In this document: in pieces, positions 41,073 to 53,665 of the stretch
How positions within the stretch are numbered: the stretch's first letter is position 1
Layout: every line of letters starts with the position of its first letter
From: Candidatus Methanomethylicia archaeon
GTDB taxonomy: Archaea; Thermoproteota; Methanomethylicia; Nezhaarchaeales; B40-G2
NCBI GenBank assembly: GCA_029259155.1
Contig: JAPDJI010000006.1
Span: 1-64,000, forward strand
Length of the DNA stretch: 64,000 nucleotides
Direction: 5' to 3'
Translations under genes and position numbers: made by a program
Notes under the pieces: model-generated
Database searches by the model: none
Told to the model about the DNA's origin: nothing
What the model saw: only the letters and a program-made list of their open reading frames with translations

Positions 41073-41528
41073 TTGGAGAAGCGGATGAGTTGGGACGAGT
41101 ACTTTATGGAGATGGCCAAGCTGGTCAGTAAGCGTAGTACCTGTTTAAGGAGGCATACGGGCGCTGTGCTCGTGAAGGATAACCGTATAATTGCTACTGG
41201 CTATAATGGAGCCCCTAAAGGGTTACCCCACTGCGCGGAGGTTGGCTGTATGAGGGAGGCTTTAAAGGTGCCTTCAGGTCAGCGACATGAGCTCTGTAGA
41301 GGGCTACATGCGGAGCAGAACGCCATTATTCAGGCAGCGGTGTTCGGCGTAAGCACTAGGGGCGCTACGCTGTACACTACGACCTATCCCTGCGTGATAT
41401 GCGCCAAGATGATTATTAATGCCGAGATCGGGGAGGTAGTGTACGATGACGACTACGAGGACGACTTAGCCAAGCGAATGCTCAGCGAGGCGAGGATTAA
41501 GGTTAGGAGGTTTAAGACACGACGCTAG
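41073..41528 (+). CDS. dCMP deaminase (ComEB family)
   Basis: SWDEYFM, RSTCLRR, TGYNG, HAEQNAI, PCVICAK. Confidence 0.92.
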
Positions 41529-42942
41529 CAGCCCGCTCCGCTGCCTCGATCAACGGGTCTGGATGTAGGCCTAGGGCGAGGCAGATCAAGGCCAGGGCGA
41601 ACATGGGTATTAGCATGGCGAACGATACTCTAACCCTCCCCAGCCTCCTGCGGGTCAACATGACTCGGTTGATAAAGCGGAGCCAAGCAGCTGAGAACAC
41701 CGCCATCATCACCGCTGCGGCCACGGTGGGCGCCAGTAGCCCCACGTCGACCCCGGCCATGTAAATGAGGAGCTCGCTCACGAATATGTTCAGGCCAGGG
41801 ATGCCGATGATGGATAAGGAACCTATAAGTCCCGCTGCGCTAGCCTCAGGCATGAACCATAGCATGTCGCCCAGCGTCCTAATGTTCCTGACCTTCACCT
41901 CATGGACTATGCAACCAGCGTAGAGGAAGAGGAGGCTCTTCACTATCTCATGGTTCAAGGTGTGAGCCACTGCTGCTACAGCCGCTCCGTGAGCGAAGAG
42001 GCCTAGGGCGAAGACCACTAAGCCCATCTCGTTGATGCTTGAGTAAGCCATGAAGCGCTTGATGTCAAGCTGAGAGAAGGATAGAATGGCTGTGTAGCTA
42101 AGCATCGCAAGCCCACATCCCCACACTAGCCAGCTAACTGACCTCAATGACTCTAGGCTCCAGCAGCCATACAATATCCTTAGGAAGCCGTAGGCCGCGA
42201 CCTCTATCATCAACCCTGATAGCATGGCGCTGACGGGTGCGGGTGCTTCTGAGTGAGCATCAGGGAGCCATACGTGAAGCAGGGGGATCACGCCCATCTT
42301 AATCAGTAAGCCTATGGACACGGAGGCCGCTGCGAAGACTTCAAGGGGGCTGTCTAGGCCAAGTTCCTTCACGGCCAGGAGGTTAAAGGTCCCCTTTAAG
42401 GCGTAGAGCGATAGCAGGCCGAAGAGGAGGGTTGTTGAGGCCACGTGGGAGATGAGTAAGTATAGCATCGCTGCCCTAGGTGCCTCAGCGCCCTCCCCGT
42501 AAAGGTGAATGAGGGCGTAAGAAGACCAGACCATGAGCTCCCAGAAGAGGTAGAAGGCTATCATGTCCACTGACATCAAGCATCCAATCATGCCTGAGGT
42601 GAAGAGCAGGAGGAGGCCGCTGTAGAGCTGAGAGCCGTGCTCCACATACTTAGTGCTGTAGGTTAGGCAGGCGTGGCTGATGAAGGAGGCTAGTACCACG
42701 AAGGCCGCATTAAGCTCGTCGAAGCACAGCAGCCAGCTAAAGGCCAGCGAGCCTCCGTGGCCCCAGGAAGCCTCGAAGCACGCTCCCCCTTGGAGGTAGA
42801 GCTTGGTCGATAAGGTAAGCGCGGCAATCAACGCGGTGAGCGCAGCGGCCCAGGCCGCTGTTGGTGGAAGCTTACGCGAGCAGAGCGTATTGAAGCAGCC
42901 CACGGCAAGGGGGATTAATAGAATTAAGGCAGCCTCAAACAT
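41512..42942 (-). CDS. Proton-translocating antiporter-like subunit (NuoM/MrpD type)
   Basis: [33 protein letters not shown]...KSLLF, FVSEL (Glu in TM12, NuoM-like). Confidence 0.88.
42215..42279. repeat. 65-nt exact direct repeat, copy 1 (copy 2 at 44151-44215)
   Basis: cctgatagcatggcgctgacgggtgcgggtgcttctgagtgagcatcagggagccatacgtgaag is identical at both sites. Confidence 0.95.
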
Positions 42943-44833
42943 GTTTAACCAGCCTCCAAGCTAGTGTTGCGAGCAGCGAGGCGGTGAAGGCGAGGAGCCA
43001 GGCTTGATTAAGCGATGCAGCAAGGAGAGCGGTGAGGAGGGCTGAGAGGGCTAGGCTTACATCGACCATCCTCCTCAATAGCTCTGCGGGGTGTCTCCTT
43101 CTAAGCGCTTGGCCTAGTGGGAGGCTGGAGGCCTTAGAGAAGAAGGCTGACTCGTGGGTCCTGGCTACCTCCTTGGCGGTCAGCATGGCCGCGTCGGGCA
43201 AATCATCTAAGAAGCCAGCTCTAAGCTTAGCTTCGGAGCCTTGGCTTAGGAGCCTCGACATCCTTAGAAACGACGAGGCCAGCCAGGAATACGCGTAGTC
43301 CACGCCGAGCCCAGAGGTCAGCAACGATGTGAGCCTCCTCGGGGCCGTGCAGTTGCCTATTTGATAATAGGCCCACCATAGGGCCAGGCCGGCCAGTGCG
43401 CATAGTAGGGTAGAGGCCATCAGGAAGAGGCTGAGCCTTACTTCGAGGGATTCCACGATTCCGAGCGTGACCATCCACCTAGCAGGGGTAATGAGCAGCA
43501 CGCCTAGAGGAAGGCCTAGGAGGCAAGCTGAGGCAAGCGCTAGCATGGGAGGCAGGGTGGTGGACGGCGGCGAGGCCTCGACGAGCCTGTAGGAGGAGCC
43601 GTAGATGAAGCCGAGTAGCCTAGCCACGTAGGCCACGGTGAGGGCAGAGCCCAGCATCATTAACCCAGCCACCCAGAGCCTCCCCTCCTCGAGGGCTGTG
43701 TCTATTATCAGGTCCTTGGTGAAGAAGGCGTTGAGAGGAGGGATGGCTGCGAGGGCTAGGGCACCTATAGCGAAGGCAGCTCCATGAAGCCTTAGGTCGG
43801 TCCCCACCCCCCTAAGCACCCTTAAGTCCCTAGACCCAGCAGCGTGGCTTAACACGCCGGCGGCTAGGAAGAGGAGGGACTTGAAGAGGGCATGGCTGAA
43901 GGCGTGTAGGCCTGCTGCCACTAAGCCCAGCGTGGAAGCTAGGCCGAGGGAGGCCACCATGTACCCTAGCTGGCTTATGGAAGAGAAGGCCAACACCCTC
44001 TTCACGTCAAGCTCGACTAGGGCTGCTGCCCCTCCATAAAGCAGGGTTACTACCCCCCCGAGGAGTAGTAGGGGGGCCAGCCCCTCAGCTATTTCCACGC
44101 TTAAGTCCATGGTCCTAATCAGCATGTAGACCCCGACGTGTACCATCAATCCTGATAGCATGGCGCTGACGGGTGCGGGTGCTTCTGAGTGAGCATCAGG
44201 GAGCCATACGTGAAGTGGGTAGATGGCCACCTTGAAGGCTAGCCCAGCGACCATTAAGGCGCAGGCCAGCTTCAAGCCCCACGTAGCCTCGTGGGCTGCT
44301 AAGAAGCGTAGCTGAGCGAGGTCGAAGGTATGGGTGGTCATGTAGAAGGTGACTATGGACACTACCATCAACGCGCCGCCTAGGTGAGTGAAAATGAAGT
44401 ACTTAGTAGCTATCGACAGCGCTTTCTCCTTGGGACACTCAGCCCAGTGGGCTATAAGGAGGTAGGAAGGTATCAACATGAACTCCCAGAACACGTAGAA
44501 GAGCACGAAGTTTCTTGAGGTCACTGAGCCAGCCATGCCGAGGGCGAAGAGGCATAGCAGGCCGAAGAACCTGGACCTATCAGTCTCCACGTAGCTGTGA
44601 GAGTAGACGCTGGCGAGGAGCGATATGGTGAGCACGAGGACTATGAAAGCCTGGGAGAGTAGGTCGTTGAAGAAGGGTAGGTCAATGGGGTCGGGGATGA
44701 AGAGGAAGGCGAGAGACATAGCCAAACCAAGTGAAGCTGCGAGACCTGCGTGTTCCTCAAGCCTATCGCTCACCGCTATGGTTAGAAGCACACCAGTGGC
44801 GGAGAGAACCATGAGAGAGTAGAGGGTACCCAT
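42935..44833 (-). CDS. Proton-translocating antiporter-like subunit (NuoL/MrpA type)
   Basis: [52 protein letters not shown]-terminal GLGVDYAY plus long amphipathic helix. Confidence 0.88.
   Translation of the reverse strand: MGTLYSLMVLSATGVLLTIAVSDRLEEHAGLAASLGLAMSLAFLFIPDPIDLPFFNDLLSQAFIVLVLTISLLASVYSHSYVETDRSRFFGLLCLFALGMAGSVTSRNFVLFYVFWEFMLIPSYLLIAHWAECPKEKALSIATKYFIFTHLGGALMVVSIVTFYMTTHTFDLAQLRFLAAHEATWGLKLACALMVAGLAFKVAIYPLHVWLPDAHSEAPAPVSAMLSGLMVHVGVYMLIRTMDLSVEIAEGLAPLLLLGGVVTLLYGGAAALVELDVKRVLAFSSISQLGYMVASLGLASTLGLVAAGLHAFSHALFKSLLFLAAGVLSHAAGSRDLRVLRGVGTDLRLHGAAFAIGALALAAIPPLNAFFTKDLIIDTALEEGRLWVAGLMMLGSALTVAYVARLLGFIYGSSYRLVEASPPSTTLPPMLALASACLLGLPLGVLLITPARWMVTLGIVESLEVRLSLFLMASTLLCALAGLALWWAYYQIGNCTAPRRLTSLLTSGLGVDYAYSWLASSFLRMSRLLSQGSEAKLRAGFLDDLPDAAMLTAKEVARTHESAFFSKASSLPLGQALRRRHPAELLRRMVDVSLALSALLTALLAASLNQAWLLAFTASLLATLAWRLVKHV
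44151..44215. repeat. 65-nt exact direct repeat, copy 2
   Basis: Identical to 42215-42279; extends by CATCAA past one mismatch. Confidence 0.95.
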
Positions 44834-44837
44834 CGAC

Positions 44838-46289
44838 CTAGACCTCCATCATCCAACTCTCCTCCAAGCAGGCTACGGCCGCCTTGTGAGCTGACTCAAG
44901 GAACGGTGAAGGAGCGAGGCCTATGAGGAAGCAACTTATGATCAGCGAGATTATTAGGGCTCGGAGGCCCCAGCTAGCTCCACGCTGCGTGGATGGCCCC
45001 TCCCCGGCCCTGCTGTACATGGAGTAGAGAGCCCTCATGAAAGATGCCAGCATAACTAGGTCGAGCACGATGAAGGCCGCCGCTACCCATAGGAGACCCT
45101 CCTCAACCATCGATAGGAACACTAAGAACTTGCTGTGGAAGCCGTTGAGTGGGGGCACAGCGCAGCTACTGAGCGAGGCTATAAGGAAGCCAGTGGTGCC
45201 TAGTAGCACGTGTTTATAGGCACCCTTTAAGGCATAGATTCTCCTTCCCTGAGAGGACTGTATGAAGAGCGCTATGCTGGCGAAGAAGAGGTTCTTAATT
45301 AACACGAGGTTGAGCACGTGGAAGAAGACTCCTTGAAGGGCCGTATGGTTAGCTATGCCCCAAGCCATCATCAACACACCCCCCTCCCCCACTGAGGTAC
45401 AGGTTACGAGGCGCTTAAGGTCGTCCTGGCCGAGCGCAAGTAGGTAGCCAGCAGCCATGTTTACAACAGCGGCCGCGAGGAAGAAGTCCTTCAAGGCTGG
45501 TAAGAGGGGACGGTACACGGTGAATAACATGCGGGTCGCTCCATAGAAGCCGACGACTCTCACCGCAGCAGCCATGAACGCGCTCGAGGGGCTTGGAGCC
45601 CATGGGTTAACCCCCGGGAACCATATATGGGCTGGGAACACCGCTAACTTCACCCAAAAACCTCCCAGCACGAGGGGTAGGGTCAGCCATAGAGCCTGAG
45701 GCGGAATAGTGGAAGCCACCTCAGGTATCATGGTCGACCCTGCCTGAAGAGCTAGTACCGCGAAGCCGAGCACGAGGAGGATGGTGGAGGCCGCGTCGAA
45801 GGCTAAGTAGAGCGCTAAGCTCTCCCTAGGCCCTGTATCTATGCCGACCTCGTCAGGTAGGCGGGGGGCCATGAAGTAGTAGGAGGCCAAGTTCATCAAT
45901 AGGTAGAAGAGGAGAAAGCTAAGGAGGTCGCCACAGTAAATAAGGCTCACGATCCCCAGCAGGGATAAGGTGAGGGAAGCATAGTAAGCAGGATCGTTTA
46001 GCTTCTTTAAGTAAGTAGCTGCTAAGAGCATGGCGGCAGCTCCAGCCATGGTGAACTTCTCGAGGAGCAGTGCTCCATAGGCGTCCAGGAAGAGAAGGCT
46101 TGGAGACCTAGAGAGCACGGCTGGGGTATCCTCGACAAGGGGGGCTGCTAAAAACGAAGCTGCTAGGCAGGCTAGGGAGCCTACTACAGCTACGTAGCTA
46201 GTAAGCTTAGCTCCACGCTTCACTACCGCTGAGGCTGAGGTGGCTACAGCTGTAACAATAGCCGCCTGTAGAGGCAGTGAGGCTAGCAA
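44838..46289 (-). CDS. Proton-translocating antiporter-like subunit (NuoN/MrpD type)
   Basis: VKLAVFPAHIWFP, QDDLKRL, PPLNGFHSKF; the TM5 Glu appears absent (LFYLLMNL). Confidence 0.82.
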   Translation of the reverse strand: MLASLPLQAAIVTAVATSASAVVKRGAKLTSYVAVVGSLACLAASFLAAPLVEDTPAVLSRSPSLLFLDAYGALLLEKFTMAGAAAMLLAATYLKKLNDPAYYASLTLSLLGIVSLIYCGDLLSFLLFYLLMNLASYYFMAPRLPDEVGIDTGPRESLALYLAFDAASTILLVLGFAVLALQAGSTMIPEVASTIPPQALWLTLPLVLGGFWVKLAVFPAHIWFPGVNPWAPSPSSAFMAAAVRVVGFYGATRMLFTVYRPLLPALKDFFLAAAVVNMAAGYLLALGQDDLKRLVTCTSVGEGGVLMMAWGIANHTALQGVFFHVLNLVLIKNLFFASIALFIQSSQGRRIYALKGAYKHVLLGTTGFLIASLSSCAVPPLNGFHSKFLVFLSMVEEGLLWVAAAFIVLDLVMLASFMRALYSMYSRAGEGPSTQRGASWGLRALIISLIISCFLIGLAPSPFLESAHKAAVACLEESWMMEV

Positions 46290-46305
46290 TTCACAAGGCC
46301 TCCAA

Positions 46306-46956
46306 TCAGAGGCCGAGGAAGTGTAGCCTATGCCTTCTCCTTAATAGGATGACTGCGTCTCCCTGCTCCAGCTGAGGTACTTCGTTAGGTAGTAAGGCGG
46401 CCCCCCCTCTGAGTATGAGGAGGGGGTAGGTGTCTTTGAGCTTCCTGCGTATGTCCAGCGGCCTAAGCCCCTTTAGCCTAGAGCCTTCGTCCACGGACAC
46501 CTCCTCGACCTCTATGTCCTTGCGCACCATCTCAAGTAGCTCGAAGAGGCTTATTCTCCTAATCTTAGCGTAGATCCTTAACACCGAGGAATCTACGTGG
46601 TTGACCAGCTCGTGAAAGCCCAGCGACCTACAGACCTCAGCGTAGGAGGCGTGCTTTATTCGAACAAGCACCCTTCTAGCTCCTAGGTTCTTGGCTAGGA
46701 GGGAAGCAATGAGGTTCACTGGGTCGCTCCCTGTCAGGGCGGCGAAGACGTCAGCCCTCCCCACGCCCGCCTCGATTAACACGCGTGGGTCAGTGGCACT
46801 TCCGGTGAAGACGTTAACCTCAGCCTCGAGAGACTTGGCTAGCCTCTCGGTGACCTCTGGGCTAGTGTCGATGGCCGCTACTTTGTAGCCGTGGAGCACC
46901 ATCCTCCTCACCGTGGCCTCTCCAACGTCGCCTAAGCCGGCCACTATGATAAACAA
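46306..46956 (-). CDS. trkA: TrkA/KtrA-family RCK protein
   Basis: IIVAGLGDVG, GSATDP..L..AG, ALTGSD..N; TrkA-C tail. Confidence 0.85.
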   Translation of the reverse strand: MFIIVAGLGDVGEATVRRMVLHGYKVAAIDTSPEVTERLAKSLEAEVNVFTGSATDPRVLIEAGVGRADVFAALTGSDPVNLIASLLAKNLGARRVLVRIKHASYAEVCRSLGFHELVNHVDSSVLRIYAKIRRISLFELLEMVRKDIEVEEVSVDEGSRLKGLRPLDIRRKLKDTYPLLILRGGAALLPNEVPQLEQGDAVILLRRRHRLHFLGL

Positions 46957-47588
46957 CCACTAGCCCCCTCCTTGTGTCTGATTAACACGAGGACATCGCC
47001 CGGCTCCAGCGTCAAGTCGGGGTCGGGGAACTTCACCTCCCCCTCTGACAACACGAAGGCTGGGTAGGAGTTCTTCAGAACCTCCTCACCGAGCTCCTTG
47101 ATCTTCCTCCACGCTAGCTCCGAGCCCTCCCCTATCTCGACGTGCTCGACGTCGACGAAGTGCTCACCTATAGAGACTACGTCGGCCAGCTTAAAGCCAT
47201 GGACAGATGCATCGATCCTAAACGCTGTGGCCTCGGCTGGGCTACAGATCTCGGTGAGGCCGACCATCCTACAGGCCTCCACGTACACCGGGTTCTCGAC
47301 CCTCACCAACACCCTCCTAGCTCCCTGATGCTTAGCCAGTAGAGCTGAGACTAAGTTTACATCGTCGCTCCCCGTCAACGCTAAGAAGGTGTCAGCTTCC
47401 TCAACCCTCACCTGTTCCATGACGTGGGGGTCTGTTACGTCACCCTTCACCACCTCAACCCCCCTTGCCTCAAGCTCCCTGCAAGCAGCCTCATCGCGCT
47501 CGATCACCACGACGTGATAGCCAAGCCCCTTCAAGTAGGTCGCCAGCGCCCTCCCGATGTCGCCTCCTCCGGCTATCACTACCTTCAC
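46944..47588 (-). CDS. trkA: TrkA/KtrA-family RCK protein
   Basis: VIAGGGDIG, GDVTDP, ALTGSDDVN, P.PD..LEPGD. Confidence 0.88.
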   Translation of the reverse strand: MKVVIAGGGDIGRALATYLKGLGYHVVVIERDEAACRELEARGVEVVKGDVTDPHVMEQVRVEEADTFLALTGSDDVNLVSALLAKHQGARRVLVRVENPVYVEACRMVGLTEICSPAEATAFRIDASVHGFKLADVVSIGEHFVDVEHVEIGEGSELAWRKIKELGEEVLKNSYPAFVLSEGEVKFPDPDLTLEPGDVLVLIRHKEGASGCLS

Positions 47589-47683
47589 TCCCTACCTCAC
47601 CGCCGACCTTAAACTCTTAGATACGTAAAAGGGTATCGCCGTAAAGGAAATAGGTCGGCTAGTAAAAGAAACTATAGATAGGC

Positions 47684-48331
47684 TTGTTCGTGGTCATAGC
47701 TGGCGGCGGTGGTGTTGGTAAAGCTCTGGCTAAGAGGCTTATTGAGAGAGGGGAGAGGGTCGTCGTAGTGGACAAGGACCCCTCGACGTGCTCTATGCTT
47801 CGAGAGGAGCTGGGCGTCGAGGTGGTAGAGGGCGATGCTACCAACATGAACGTCCTCCAGCGCGCTGGCGTCGAACACTGTGACGCCCTCTTCGCCCTAG
47901 TTGGCCAGGGCAACATCAACGTCATGATAGCGTTGGCTGCCACTGTCTGTGGCTGTAAGGCTGGGAGGGTTGTAGTGAGGGTGGACAACGACCGCTACCT
48001 TGAAGTGTGTAGCATGCTCGGCTTGAAGGAGGTCGTGAACCCAGCTAAATCGGTGGCCGTAGTGGTGTCCGAGATGGTTAGAGGTGTCAAGCTAACCACG
48101 TTGGCGGAGATGTACTACAAGGGTTACATCGACGTAGAGAGCGTAAAGGCAGAGGATGAACAGTATCTACAGGCCCTCGTAACTAAGATTGCCCATATGG
48201 TAGGTCAAGAATGCCACCCTATCCTCGTGATAAGGAACAGTAAGATCATGCTTCCTGAGCCTAACCTCAAGCTCAAGGCAGGGGATGAGGTAGTTCTCAT
48301 AAAGCGGAGGAGTTTGATGTGCGCGTCGTGA
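47684..48331 (+). CDS. trkA: TrkA/KtrA-family RCK protein
   Basis: VIAGGGGVG, GDAT...L..AG, VVNPA, P.P...LKAGD. Confidence 0.88.
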   Translation: MFVVIAGGGGVGKALAKRLIERGERVVVVDKDPSTCSMLREELGVEVVEGDATNMNVLQRAGVEHCDALFALVGQGNINVMIALAATVCGCKAGRVVVRVDNDRYLEVCSMLGLKEVVNPAKSVAVVVSEMVRGVKLTTLAEMYYKGYIDVESVKAEDEQYLQALVTKIAHMVGQECHPILVIRNSKIMLPEPNLKLKAGDEVVLIKRRSLMCAS

Positions 48332-48945
48332 TAGCTGGAGGAGGAGATCTCGGGGAGTCGGTCGCCAGGATCTTAAAAATTCAAGGCGTACACGTCACCA
48401 TAGTAGATCGAAGTAGGAAAACTTGTGAGAAGCTTGCTAAAAGGCTAGATGTGGACTTTGTTGAAGGAGATGTCAGTGACCCATTAACGCTGGAAGAGGC
48501 GAGAATTGAGGAGGCTTCGGCTTTCCTAGCTTTAACGGGCGATGACTCCATTAACACTATCTCCTCGCTCATAGCTAAGCGATACGGAGTTCCAAGAATA
48601 ATAGCTAGAATAGAAGACTCGAGCTATGCTCGCGTATGTGAGGCTAATGGGGTGGAGGTCGTCAGCTTCGTTGAATCAGCCTCTATGATGTTGGAGGCCA
48701 TATTGTATCACAATAAGCTGATCGAACTAACCTCATTAATAGAGGAGGAGGGGTTGGACATAGAGCGCATAGATTACCACGGTAAAACAGGGGAGTTAAA
48801 AATTAAGCATAATGACGCCTACCCAATTATGGTGGTGAGGGGCGGCGAAGTCTTCCTGCCCAATCCAGGGCTTAAGCTTAAAGATGGTGACAGAATATTC
48901 ATCATAAAAAGGCGTAAGAAGCTCTTCTACATACCTGAGCTTTAA
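48319..48945 (+). CDS. trkA: TrkA/KtrA-family RCK protein
   Basis: VIAGGGDLG, GDVSDP..LEEA, ALTGDD..N, PNP..KLKDGD. Confidence 0.88.
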   Translation: MRVVIAGGGDLGESVARILKIQGVHVTIVDRSRKTCEKLAKRLDVDFVEGDVSDPLTLEEARIEEASAFLALTGDDSINTISSLIAKRYGVPRIIARIEDSSYARVCEANGVEVVSFVESASMMLEAILYHNKLIELTSLIEEEGLDIERIDYHGKTGELKIKHNDAYPIMVVRGGEVFLPNPGLKLKDGDRIFIIKRRKKLFYIPEL

Positions 48946-50387
48946 AGCACTATACCTGTCGAGAAGTAAAGAGCTGTGCCTATGAGGATGACGATGAACC
49001 ATAGGAGAAGATCTAAGAACCTTTTACGCCTCGTTAACCCAGGCCTTCTGGTCAGCTGTGACGGATAAATAGTTATGTTTAGCCTCTTGGCCACTAAGAA
49101 GGAGATCATGGATGCTATCAGCATAGGTGCGAATAAGCTGAAGTTACTGCATGTTTCACATAGGAGTAGGATAGTAGACATGGGTACTCTACCGGCAGCG
49201 GCGTAGAGCGCAGCCATCCCAGCGACTATGTAGGCAACATGCGCCCCTGACCTAACTATGAATTCAGGAAATAGCGCATCGAGAGCTAATGCGTAAGCTC
49301 CACCTATCATCGCTCCGCAGAAAAGCGAAGGTACTATTACACCTCCAGCTCCAGCGCTAGCTATGGAAAAAGTGCTAGCCAAGATTTTTCCGAAGTATAA
49401 AAGGAGGAAAACCCATATCAGAAGGTGGCCAAAGCTATTAAAGAGCTCCGTGAAATCTATGGTTTCCTGTATTACCCAGTAGCCCATTCCCCATAAATAG
49501 AGCTCCCCTAGCATTAAAAGCCCTAACAACACGACGAGGCCGTCGAGCAGTCCTCCAATAGCTGGCCTTAAAGGTCTAGGTATTTTAGAGTCTCTAATCG
49601 GGTAATGGAAGGCATAGAATATTTTAGTCCATAGAGCAGCTGCAATAACCGATACAAGCCCCAGCAACGCCATGCCTGCGACGTGAAATAAGCTGTAAGC
49701 TACGTTGGGGTTCAGTATTAACATGTCATGGAACTTTGGAAAAGTTACGAGAGGCTCTGAGCCTAAAAGGGAGTTGAACAGCAGAAAACCTACTACCGAA
49801 GATATCAGGGCTGACGGTAAAGCTTCCACCTCGACGTCTTCAGAGTATAGGACCTCGCTAGCAAAGATCCCCCCACCGAGGGGGGCACTGAAGATTCCTC
49901 CTAAAGCCCCTGCAGCTCCACAGATAGCCACTATCTTAGCGTCTCTACGCGTAAACTTCATGAACCTCCCAAGCCATGTTTTCTTAAAGAAGAGGTTGAT
50001 GGCTGCGGCGACGGCGCTGCCTGAATATGCCATAGGACATTCTCTGCCAGCGCTGCCACCTGTACCTATGGTTAGGGAGGCGGTCAAGATTTTCAATACC
50101 CCTTTGCCCGGGTTTGTATACCCATGATGTAGGTGGACGAGCTCTATCATGCCATCGGTGGAGCATGGAATGTAGAATGCATCTTTGTCTAGAAGGTAAT
50201 TAAGTAAGCCTACGGCTAAACCGCCTGCAAAAGGTATGAGGGCTACCATAAACAATAAGCCTTGACTACGAGCTTGATTGACGAGATCTAAGAAGAACTC
50301 TATGGAGAACTTCAAGGAAACAGTAAAGGCTATGCCTGCGATTCCACCGAGAAGTCCTGAAAGGAGGCCAAAGATCACCCATTTCAT
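48942..50387 (-). CDS. ClC-family chloride channel/transporter without CBS domains
   Basis: TIGTGGSAGRECP, GAAGALGGIFSAPLGG, GAGGVIVPSL, IYPSQ. Confidence 0.9.
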   Translation of the reverse strand: MKWVIFGLLSGLLGGIAGIAFTVSLKFSIEFFLDLVNQARSQGLLFMVALIPFAGGLAVGLLNYLLDKDAFYIPCSTDGMIELVHLHHGYTNPGKGVLKILTASLTIGTGGSAGRECPMAYSGSAVAAAINLFFKKTWLGRFMKFTRRDAKIVAICGAAGALGGIFSAPLGGGIFASEVLYSEDVEVEALPSALISSVVGFLLFNSLLGSEPLVTFPKFHDMLILNPNVAYSLFHVAGMALLGLVSVIAAALWTKIFYAFHYPIRDSKIPRPLRPAIGGLLDGLVVLLGLLMLGELYLWGMGYWVIQETIDFTELFNSFGHLLIWVFLLLYFGKILASTFSIASAGAGGVIVPSLFCGAMIGGAYALALDALFPEFIVRSGAHVAYIVAGMAALYAAAGRVPMSTILLLCETCSNFSLFAPMLIASMISFLVAKRLNITIYPSQLTRRPGLTRRKRFLDLLLWFIVILIGTALYFSTGIVL

Positions 50388-52237: not shown

Positions 52238-53665
52238 TCATAGCCTTTCCCAAAGCTCCGAGGTGAATAGAGCTAGGATAGGTAGCAGTTCTAAGCGTCC
52301 AACCCACATACACCAGACCAAGGCCAGCTTCGAAGTAGCGTTAAGGCTGAAAAGATCCAAGTACGCTGGTCCGACACCGCCCTCCGCTGATAAAGTGGCT
52401 GATAGAGCTGATGTGAAGGGTATGCCTTGGGCTGTTATGATAAGTGTAGAGACAAAAGCTACGGCCAAGTAGATGAAGAAGAAGCTAGCTACTCTTAACG
52501 CGTCTTCAACGTTCATGATCCTTCCTCCGACTTTGAGAGGTTTAATGGACTTTGGAGGAAGCATGGTTTTATGTACTTCATGTGACGCTAGCTTGAAGAG
52601 CACTATCATCCTCGCCACCTTGATAGCTCCAGCGGTGGAGCATAGCGATCCACCTACGACCATCAATATCATCAATATCCACTTAGACGCCTCGGGAAGA
52701 GAATTAACATCCATGCTGGTGAAACCGGTTGTCGTAGCTATGGAAACTGTCTGAAATACACCTAGCCTAAATGCATGTAGTGTACTAACGTTTAGATGAA
52801 GAACTATATCGAGGGAGACTATGATCGAAGCTACGGCTATAATCATTAACATTACCTTAAGCTCCAGGTTCCTCCAAACCTCATCGTTCCTCCCTTTAAG
52901 TAGATAGAGGTGGACGTGGAAGTTGGTGGCCCCTATAATCATGAACACCACTAGTACGCTCTCTACCCAGGGGTTATGAAACCCCTCTATATTAAGTGTC
53001 TTTGTTGAAAATCCTCCAGTGGCCAACGTGGTAAAGGAGTGGCATAGAGCGTCGAAGCCCGAGAGGCCTAGGTAAGTCAGCAAAATAGCGCACAGGAAGG
53101 TGTAAAGCGTGTATATTAGCCAAAGATCCTTAACCGTGTCCCATGCCCTAATCGTAAGTTTCTCCTCTCTAGCTTCAGCTACGTAAAGCCTCCAAACTCC
53201 AATTCCACGTGGAGTCATAAAGAGGATGAAGAACAATACGATTCCAAGCCCTCCAAGCCATTGAGTTAAGGCCCTCCAGAAGAGTAAGCTATGAGGGACA
53301 TCTTCAAGATTGCTCAGTAAGGTCATGCCAGTAGCCGTAAACCCAGACATGGCTTCAAAGAAAGCGTCCAGGGGTGCCATGTCATGTAGGTATGGAAGAG
53401 AGCCAATACCTGTTATCAGGAGCCAACCCATTGCTGAGAAGAACAAGGCCTGAGCTGGATTGATCTCGTCAGGGATGGGTAGCTTCGCGCTAAAGAAACC
53501 GCCTACAATCATGAGGGGGAGAGCTACTGAAAGCAGCTCTTCAAGAACCATCCACTCCTCATAGATTACAGCTACAAGACTAGGGGCTAAGAGCACGAGC
53601 CCAAGCAACAATGTGAGCCTCGCGAAGAGAGCAGGTAGTGCCAGTTTCTTCAATCCTGACACCAA
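52238..53665 (-). CDS. trkH: Trk potassium uptake membrane protein
   Basis: FEAMSGFTATG, TQWLGGLG, TLATGGFS, TTTGF, STAGAIK, GRLE. Confidence 0.93.
   Translation of the reverse strand: MVSGLKKLALPALFARLTLLLGLVLLAPSLVAVIYEEWMVLEELLSVALPLMIVGGFFSAKLPIPDEINPAQALFFSAMGWLLITGIGSLPYLHDMAPLDAFFEAMSGFTATGMTLLSNLEDVPHSLLFWRALTQWLGGLGIVLFFILFMTPRGIGVWRLYVAEAREEKLTIRAWDTVKDLWLIYTLYTFLCAILLTYLGLSGFDALCHSFTTLATGGFSTKTLNIEGFHNPWVESVLVVFMIIGATNFHVHLYLLKGRNDEVWRNLELKVMLMIIAVASIIVSLDIVLHLNVSTLHAFRLGVFQTVSIATTTGFTSMDVNSLPEASKWILMILMVVGGSLCSTAGAIKVARMIVLFKLASHEVHKTMLPPKSIKPLKVGGRIMNVEDALRVASFFFIYLAVAFVSTLIITAQGIPFTSALSATLSAEGGVGPAYLDLFSLNATSKLALVWCMWVGRLELLPILALFTSELWERL

Follow-up and report, generated by a model that had tools for sequence, protein, structure and literature searches.

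In the genome of a rare hydrothermal archaeon, Candidatus Methanomethylicia archaeon (GenBank assembly GCA_029259155.1; 1.55 Mb in 47 contigs, 94% complete; G000 below), two genes for RCK proteins lead directly into three genes for antiporter-like subunits of the complex I type. They lie in the first 64,000 nucleotides of contig JAPDJI010000006.1, a stretch called the window here, and all coordinates are window positions. The row is encoded on the minus strand and begins with RCK-A (46944-47588; 214 amino acids (aa); Pfam TrkA_N 102 bits, TrkA_C 27.4 bits) and RCK-B (46306-46956; TTG start; 216 aa; TrkA_N 86.7 bits). These are followed by the N-like subunit (44838-46289; 483 aa; PF00361 114 bits), the L-like subunit (42935-44833; ATG start; 632 aa; PF00361 215 bits), which has a C-terminal lateral-helix extension, and the M-like subunit as the last gene (41512-42942; ATG start; 476 aa; PF00361 183 bits). 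We refer to the three as the triad, of which N-like is the most divergent member. In the open reading frame (ORF) map, RCK-A and RCK-B overlap by 13 nt, a gap of 16 nt separates RCK-B from N-like and one of 4 nt N-like from L-like, and L-like overlaps M-like by 8 nt. The coordinates and junctions confirm a first-pass annotation, made from the letters of the window, which had the two RCK genes running into three antiporter-like subunits with overlaps or gaps of no more than 16 nt.

Every internal cistron of the row is preceded by a GGAGG motif: at 46967-46971 for RCK-B (10 nt spacing), 46299-46303 for N-like (9 nt), 44843-44847 for the ATG of L-like (9 nt) and 42953-42957 for the ATG of M-like (10 nt). 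It is this placement that carries the Shine-Dalgarno argument, and not the count over the whole window, in which the motif is not rare: GGAGG-N9-start matched 14 times against 7.0 ± 2.6 expected, and at least 14 matches were reached in 3 of 100 shuffles. A GGAGG before each internal start is consistent with a polycistronic mRNA, and rckA-rckB-N-L-M is predicted to be one tight five-gene operon. A promoter and terminator scan gave 5 and 10 matches against 4.8 and 8.6 in shuffles; it relies on a sigma-70 model that is inapplicable to archaea and was left unused.

Two further RCK genes stand on the plus strand, as the first-pass annotation had also recorded. They are reached across a divergent, A/T-rich intergenic region of 95 nt (47589-47683), the presumed site of both promoters, whose elements were judged by eye. 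RCK-C (47684-48331; 215 aa; TrkA_N 95 bits) is the first of this pair and overlaps RCK-D (48319-48945; GTG start; 208 aa; TrkA_N 92 bits) by 13 nt, and a GGAGG at 48306-48310 precedes the GTG of RCK-D with 8 nt spacing. RCK-D in turn converges, with a 4-nt overlap, on a minus-strand gene for ClC, a CBS-less anion channel or exchanger (48942-50387; 481 aa; Voltage_CLC 204.6 bits). At its other end the operon stops at a convergent dCMP deaminase gene (41073-41528) that overlaps M-like by 17 nt, just where the run had been said to end. The flanking genes are those for CofC, CofD and dCMP deaminase on this side, and for ClC, an M20 peptidase and TrkH on the other.

The RCK-B/N-like and dCMP-deaminase/M-like junctions are bridged by contigs of three other sequencing runs, so the arrangement is not a mis-assembly. 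A direct repeat of 99 nt occurs in the TM7-TM8 coding parts (TM, transmembrane helix) of M-like (copy 1, 42190-42288) and L-like (copy 2, 44126-44224). The two copies are 90% identical with a long exact core, which looks like gene conversion between paralogues, and contig breaks of three other assemblies coincide with both of them.

The typing of the triad as N, L and M had been read from the motifs FHSKF, FTKD and VSE in TM12, and it held. All three motifs are present in the translations and fall on the Lys/Glu column in an alignment with 243 homologues, a biased sample consisting of the top matches to L-like and N-like; the residues there are Lys in N-like, Lys-Asp in L-like and Glu in M-like. 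The best NCBIfam models are NuoN for N-like (TIGR01770, 142.6 against a cut-off of 332.6), NuoL for L-like (NF005141, 260.7 against 556) and NuoM for M-like (TIGR01972, 233.6 against 263.8), each below its cut-off. The FpoL model scored 166.7 against a cut-off of 1050, and the MrpA and MrpD models were far under theirs. Among solved structures, the top sequence match of all three proteins is MbhH (6cfw_H; 122, 175 and 182 bits), followed by subunits of complex I/NDH-1.

The conserved lysines of TM7 and TM11 are present in N, L and M, as in 230 and 219 of the 243 homologues. The TM5 Glu (238/243) is kept in L-like and M-like; N-like has Leu or Ala there, and only 5 of the 243 have a residue other than Glu. 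The TM8 Lys column is occupied by Val in N-like, immediately preceded by an invariant Arg, by His in L-like and by Glu in M-like. M-like, which was aligned to E. coli NuoM, has an extra Glu in TM11; in that column, Glu falls outside the seven commonest residues of the homologues.

The lateral helix ascribed to L-like was recovered in the AlphaFold2 model (mean predicted local distance difference test (pLDDT) 79.9, predicted template modelling score 0.79). Helices at residues 508-540, 547-564 and 572-579 precede two terminal transmembrane helices, and Foldseek matched the model best to NuoL/ND5/NdhF chains, along its full length (about 640 columns, TM-scores of 0.70-0.75). Confidence is low in this region, with pLDDT below 50 at residues 536-583 and of 39-51 in the lateral-helix part. 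In the model, the C-terminal extension contains a lateral-helix-like stretch.

No Nuo, Mrp, hydrogenase or Fe-S gene adjoins the operon in the ORF map or in the Pfam matches of its flanks, which bears out the first-pass annotation on this point, and none of NuoH/A/J/K, MrpB/C/E/F/G or a Q module stands beside it. Three other PF00361 loci are present in G000, on contigs C7, C4 and C19, and each of these clusters has antiporter-like subunits of its own. On C7 the cluster is complex-I-like: one strand encodes NuoA, B, C, D and H, and the opposite strand carries J, K and three antiporter-like genes. The C19 cluster is Mbh/Mbx-like, with MrpE, F, G, B, MbhD, NuoK- and NuoH-like genes, and is the only place in G000 with MNHE, MrpF, PhaG and MnhB domains. 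The C4 cluster is Ech/Hyf-like, with NuoB-, C-, D- and H-like genes, Fe-S proteins and an HdrB-like CCG protein. Genome-wide there are two NuoK-like genes, confined to C7 and C19, and three NuoH-like genes, confined to C7, C19 and C4. An orphan set of partner subunits, which could have tied the triad to a known complex, was thus not found in the 94%-complete genome.

The gene order TM12-K, TM12-KD, TM12-E is common to the triad and the C7 cluster, which suggests that the triad is a diverged copy of an N-L-M block such as the one on C7. The C7 genes (L001 7891-13113) encode a K-type subunit of 521 aa, a KD-type of 704 aa and an E-type of 509 aa, and the 521-aa subunit has Thr in place of the TM7 Lys. 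On C4 (L002 2743-9896), the HdrB-like CCG-domain protein is encoded between the NuoC- and NuoD-like genes, and after a 704-aa antiporter-like gene comes a PF00361 fragment of 142 aa, in a frame that reads through one TGA.

With other complexes encoded in the genome, the triad might dock in trans on the C7, C19 or C4 complex as an accessory pumping module and add translocation sites. PMC9040806, as far as its accessible text goes, describes variants of complex I that have four or five pumping subunits, including an extra NuoM or MrpD, a hydrogenase subunit is the best solved-structure match of all three proteins, and the C19 and C4 clusters have one full antiporter-like subunit each. We nevertheless hold docking to be quite improbable. 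The triad has an L-type lateral helix of its own, which suits a self-contained row, and its N-like subunit has lost the TM5 Glu that would take the signal of an upstream subunit. Its operon partners are RCK genes, with no redox gene among them. Genomes G002 and G003, which have no triad orthologues, contain about 8 antiporter-like candidates against 11 in G000; these counts, made without inspection of the clusters, suggest that the other complexes persist in genomes that do not have the triad.

Only three or four closely related lineages, all of one archaeal family, were found to have the RCK-antiporter linkage. In G001, from a sister genus, synteny is complete from CofD to YbjQ, order and junctions are unchanged, and identities are 66-75% for the triad and 68-72% for RCK-A and RCK-B. 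A third lineage (L014, 78-87% identity) has RCK-B, the 16-nt gap, N-like and the start of L-like. Against 5.8 billion clustered proteins, L-like matched two other clusters, at 66% and 60%, before generic NuoM proteins at 42% or less. An exhaustive HMMER search of 1.84 billion representatives with N-like gave one cluster at 70% and then matches of at most 32%. A word-based search with RCK-A, in which 1104 candidates were scored, returned five proteins: RCK-A itself, two orthologues (68-71%), a likely RCK-D orthologue (37%) and one protein at 26%. The source names of the orthologues were Nitrososphaerota/"Geothermarchaeota". Among 41 relatives, L-like had a full-length match in G001 alone (64%); matches of 34-39% in five further genomes covered the core only and were taken as paralogous types. 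N-like is present in 2 of 62 genomes of the class (G000 and G001), and its alignment found one locus in a species-level genome collection, with patterns so specific that the result has little bearing on distant relatives. Of 80 metagenome loci with L-like homologues, only the three orthologous ones, the window included, have an adjoining RCK gene. The first-pass annotation had made its proposal depend on conservation of the linkage elsewhere: the linkage recurs in G001 and L014 and was found no farther afield in these searches. Its confinement to a narrow clade limits the comparative support that can be drawn from it.

A further reading takes the triad for a decaying, functionless remnant of a duplicated complex I arm, in which N-like has lost three usually conserved residues and no protein reaches any NCBIfam cut-off. 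This we find hardly credible: none of the copies seen, at 64-79% identity, has a disrupted frame, the identity to G001 is as high as that of the housekeeping neighbours, and the key Lys/Glu residues are conserved together with the Shine-Dalgarno sites.

Two side observations came from the same searches. The next-best N-like matches include proteins of about 1170-1330 aa (P0127, P0128, P0136, P0144, P0147 and P0149) with two or three PF00361 stretches and otherwise only Proton_antipo_N, plus a sub-threshold PF10125 in P0128; these are fused antiporter-like rows. An RCK fused to PF00361 was not seen, as TrkA_N was found in none of the eight such long N-like matches scanned. Eight marine metagenome loci (L040, L060, L063, L068, L078, L080, L083 and L091), probably of one lineage, have a 31%-identical PF00361 gene with a ClC homologue 6-10 kb away.

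All four RCK proteins of the window matched TrkA_N, at 87-102 bits, while TrkA_C was weak or absent, being weak in RCK-B, RCK-C and RCK-D. The translations show a GxGxxG glycine motif and an acidic residue following strand 2, as in RCK-A. The best NCBIfam models of all four are TrkA half-models, all below their cut-offs. To rank other RCK proteins by their likeness to these, 401 genomes of the phylum were searched with a hidden Markov model built from the window's own RCK paralogues. The eight RCK proteins of G000 and G001 from this locus scored 285-311 bits, five RCK proteins from five other families scored 184-216 bits (G164, G041, G118, G357 and G066), and the remaining matches scored 123-151 bits. 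All five in the middle range are encoded divergently beside a short CBS-less ClC, and none beside a TrkH (loci L137, L107, L138, L139 and L113). The lower-scoring loci examined showed the opposite pattern, with 21 of 21 beside TrkH and none beside ClC. Two matches lie outside these 21 loci, namely G000:C9, which is TrkH-adjacent by other scans, and G164:C9, for which there is no locus.

A tree of the RCK proteins placed clades A, B, C and D, each with 100% support, in one star together with the ClC-adjacent proteins and far from the TrkH-linked RCK1. RCK-C forms a separate clade, and P0124, an RCK-D orthologue, falls in the D clade. The branches of such stars do not single out one paralogue as the orthologue of the ClC-adjacent RCK. 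A C-terminal tail that is first basic and then hydrophobic is found in RCK-B, RCK-D and the ClC-adjacent proteins and is absent in RCK-A and RCK-C. From these relationships, the RCK proteins of the window are predicted to be descendants of a ClC-linked RCK and not TrkA in the strict sense. The Trk-type frame in which they had first been placed is therefore replaced here by a ClC-linked family, with nearest relatives that are ClC-adjacent in five cases out of five, and by the eight-gene cassette described below. The regular pairing of this subfamily with a short CBS-less ClC in five other families suggests an undescribed RCK regulation of prokaryotic ClC.

The ClC gene had escaped the first-pass annotation, and comparison with a related genome showed that it belongs to the same unit as the operon. 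In G002, of the same family and lacking the triad, the gene for the M20 peptidase adjoins that for dCMP deaminase at the syntenic site, so that ClC, RCK-D, RCK-C, RCK-A, RCK-B, N, L and M form one presence/absence block. The segment 41512-50387 is accordingly a lineage-specific ion-homeostasis cassette of eight genes, gained or lost as a whole. In the alignment, ClC retains the gating glutamate within a GRExP-type motif. The first motif of E. coli ClC contains a serine; the sequence of the cassette ClC differs where this motif falls, and its anion specificity is uncertain.

Composition divides the cassette in G000. The G+C content at third codon positions (GC3) is 0.65-0.73 from M-like to RCK-C (41512-48331), against a genome mean of 0.545 (standard deviation 0.074), and 0.49-0.51 for RCK-D, ClC and TrkH2, which places a compositional boundary between RCK-C and RCK-D. 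Horizontal transfer was considered as an origin of the raised GC3 and set aside: the sister locus in G001 has a GC3 of 0.66-0.75 throughout, so neither a donor nor a direction can be stated.

The ClC-adjacent relatives allow a different division of labour, in which all four RCK proteins form a heteromeric ring that regulates the adjacent ClC and the triad is merely co-expressed, as an RCK-independent translocator that might, for example, balance charge or pH for Cl-/H+ exchange. We regard this as unlikely, though with a substantial claim to attention. The five nearest RCK proteins and the shared star of the tree point to ClC as the original partner, ClC is missing from the G002 site together with the RCK genes and the triad, and the accessible part of a neighbourhood table in PMC11602996 lists a Voltage_CLC-TrkA_C fusion. 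However, RCK-A and RCK-B are translationally linked to the triad and not to ClC, which has its own transcript converging on RCK-D, and in GC3 they go with the triad and not with ClC. At the other ClC-linked loci, moreover, a single RCK stands beside ClC, with no PF00361 gene within the 2-20 kb examined (in G041 and G066 the contigs end at or just past the RCK), so that the expansion to four coincides with the arrival of the triad.

The other possible partner is TrkH2 (52238-53665, minus strand; TrkH 182.8 bits), a second TrkH with no adjoining RCK in either G000 or G001, 3.3 kb from RCK-D in G000 and likewise missed at first. Among six genomes checked, a second TrkH was found only in G000 and G001, the two with the cassette, whereas G002, G003, G004 and G007 have one TrkH with one divergent RCK each; G004 and G007 have a further weak TrkA_N match in a longer ORF. 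The RCK pairs could on this basis be split TrkA-like gating subunits of TrkH2 in K+ uptake, placed where they are for co-regulation with H+/Na+ extrusion and not binding the triad. The TrkA half-models would agree with such a role, and TM1088A/B offers an earlier example of an RCK ring encoded by two genes (PMC4380455, from the part of the paper available). We consider it improbable, as the four proteins belong to the ClC-linked subfamily and stand apart from the 21 of 21 TrkH-adjacent ones. In addition, TrkH2 lies outside the cassette, inserted between orf114 and YbjQ, and is on another contig in G001 (L096 7416-8861), and the resident RCK1 could serve it.

Weighing these observations, we tentatively favour, at slightly less than an even chance, a reading in which RCK-A and RCK-B, duplicated from ClC-linked RCK proteins, gate a stand-alone N-L-M cation/proton translocator. 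An ancestral ClC-RCK pair would have expanded to four RCK genes. The RCK-C/RCK-D pair would have stayed with the adjacent ClC, which it probably still serves, and the RCK-A/RCK-B pair would have come to lead an acquired N-L-M block, which it would now regulate. The triad would be the distal membrane arm of a complex-I-like enzyme standing alone, with no redox module, and the lateral helix of L would clamp the row together. As a secondary translocator, the row would exchange Na+ or K+ against H+: L and N would carry protons along the conserved Lys/His chain, and M, with its two extra membrane-buried Glu residues, could supply the site for the cation (Na+ or K+). N-like would be the proximal subunit, at the place where the missing NuoK/J/A input would have docked, and its loss of the TM5 Glu is what would be expected of a proximal subunit once that input is gone. 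Made from the same mRNA in fixed proportion, RCK-A and RCK-B might form a heteromeric nucleotide-binding ring or dimer at the cytoplasmic face that opens or closes the translocator when nucleotide binds. Related sensors would in this way switch both the cation/H+ and the anion/H+ flux. We infer the physical contact between the RCK proteins and the triad, the ions moved and the ligand. A complex prediction of N-like with RCK-A and RCK-B, in which N-like was scored, gave a score of 0.00 and a mark of 0.32 without controls and speaks neither for nor against contact.

In favour of gating of the triad by RCK-A and RCK-B are the tight operon, the want of any partner set in the assembly, and the raised GC3 that the two RCK genes share with the triad and not with ClC. 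A number of points weigh against it. We know of no precedent for a triad that has neither an energy input nor the known subunits of a cation path. N-like has lost three channel residues that are usually conserved. The linkage is confined to one family-level clade, in which shared ancestry is inseparable from functional constraint, and an RCK gene stood beside none of the 77 distant PF00361 metagenome loci, nor a PF00361 gene beside any of the 26 other RCK loci in the phylum sample. A completeness of 94% leaves room for a partner set outside the assembly. The RCK proteins are not of the Trk/Ktr type and, with all five nearest relatives ClC-adjacent, all four may serve ClC; the extra TrkH with no RCK co-occurs with the cassette, and ClC and TrkH2 are thus rival partners for the RCK proteins. 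Mrp antiporters, finally, as a rule require their small subunits, according to the available text of a review (PMC5703873). Of the RCK-regulated cation/H+ translocator first proposed, the operon and the lack of partner subunits have therefore stood, while its scope has shrunk to a narrow clade and its RCK proteins have changed family and acquired competing partners. The arrangement is real and unusual, the typing of its subunits is right, and the proposed function is plausible as a prediction. A more far-reaching form of it, possible and on balance doubtful, would make the reduced complex I arm, three subunits and a lateral helix, an autonomous translocator switched by an RCK ring derived from a ClC regulator, which together with an RCK-controlled ClC would constitute a ligand-gated salt (cation plus Cl-)/proton unit.

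The mechanism by which antiporter-like subunits of complex I and Mrp translocate ions is still under debate, as is what drives them. To our knowledge, every such system studied is embedded in a large assembly. An operon of N, L and M with two soluble ligand sensors would be a minimal, expressible object, and it could be a naturally minimal, ligand-gated complex I arm. It could be used to test autonomous ion translocation, the role of the lateral helix, and whether a cytoplasmic ring can replace the input of redox or small subunits. If the more far-reaching form is true, these would be the first natural antiporter-like subunits to act with no E-channel, Mrp small subunits or redox module, and the complex I/Mrp superfamily would gain its first RCK-regulated member. 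The RCK subfamily that accompanies CBS-less ClC proteins points, for its part, to an undescribed mode of ClC regulation. A search of full-text literature, supplements excluded, found no description of RCK or TrkA proteins with antiporter-like subunits, complex I or Mrp. It found none of a ClC-RCK linkage either, again outside supplements, where neighbourhood tables could mention it. The terms TrkA, RCK and KTN do not appear in the accessible text of the Mrp review PMC5703873.

Compared with known systems, the triad resembles the membrane arm of complex I/NDH-1/Fpo in its PF00361 fold, the N, L and M signatures in TM12, the lysines of TM7 and TM11 and the lateral helix of L. It differs from that arm in having no NuoH/A/J/K, Q or electron-input module, in scoring below the NuoL/M/N cut-offs, in an N-like subunit without the TM5 Glu and TM8 Lys, in an M-like subunit with Glu at the TM8 Lys column, and in the two RCK genes in front. 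With Mrp (CPA3; PMC7419157) it shares a redox-free row of antiporter-like subunits, proposed to exchange Na+ or K+ against H+, whereas it has neither MrpB/C/E/F/G nor the C-terminal domain of MrpA. MrpA alone, or MrpA with MrpD, is reported to keep activity in two organisms (PMC5703873, in its available text), which shows that large subunits do not always need the full set in order to act. The closest solved match, MbhH of the Pyrococcus membrane-bound hydrogenase (6cfw chain H), is a single antiporter-like subunit of a 14-subunit hydrogenase. Unlike the group-4 hydrogenases (Mbh/Mbx/Ech/Hyf), the triad has no hydrogenase-type gene or Mrp-like small subunit beside it; such genes are on C4 and C19.

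On the side of the regulators, the resemblance is to TrkAH and KtrAB, in which, as far as the accessible parts of PMC6987127 and PMC11078986 describe them, a separate cytoplasmic RCK protein with TrkA_N, TrkA_C and a GxGxxG motif is encoded with its membrane partner. KhtTU, from the available text of PMC10636490, likewise has an RCK protein encoded with a membrane partner, and paired RCK genes are known from the two-subunit ring of TM1088A/B. In all of TrkAH, KtrAB and KhtTU, however, the partner is a TrkH/KtrB channel or a CPA2 antiporter and not a PF00361 triad, and unlike TrkA the RCK proteins of the window lie outside the TrkH-linked subfamily and below the curated TrkA cut-offs. They are most like the ClC-linked RCK proteins of Thermoproteota, the nearest relatives of RCK-A to RCK-D, with a short CBS-less ClC adjoining in both. 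Elsewhere the ClC-linked RCK is single, whereas here there are four paralogues, two of which head the operon of the triad. A PF00361 subunit outside complex I and Mrp that works with a non-canonical soluble partner is known from DAB (DabB with DabA; 10.1101/476713 and PMC13684180, both from their available parts). DAB, as presented there, pairs one antiporter-like subunit with a carbonic-anhydrase-like partner, whereas the operon described here has a row of three antiporter-like subunits headed by two RCK genes.

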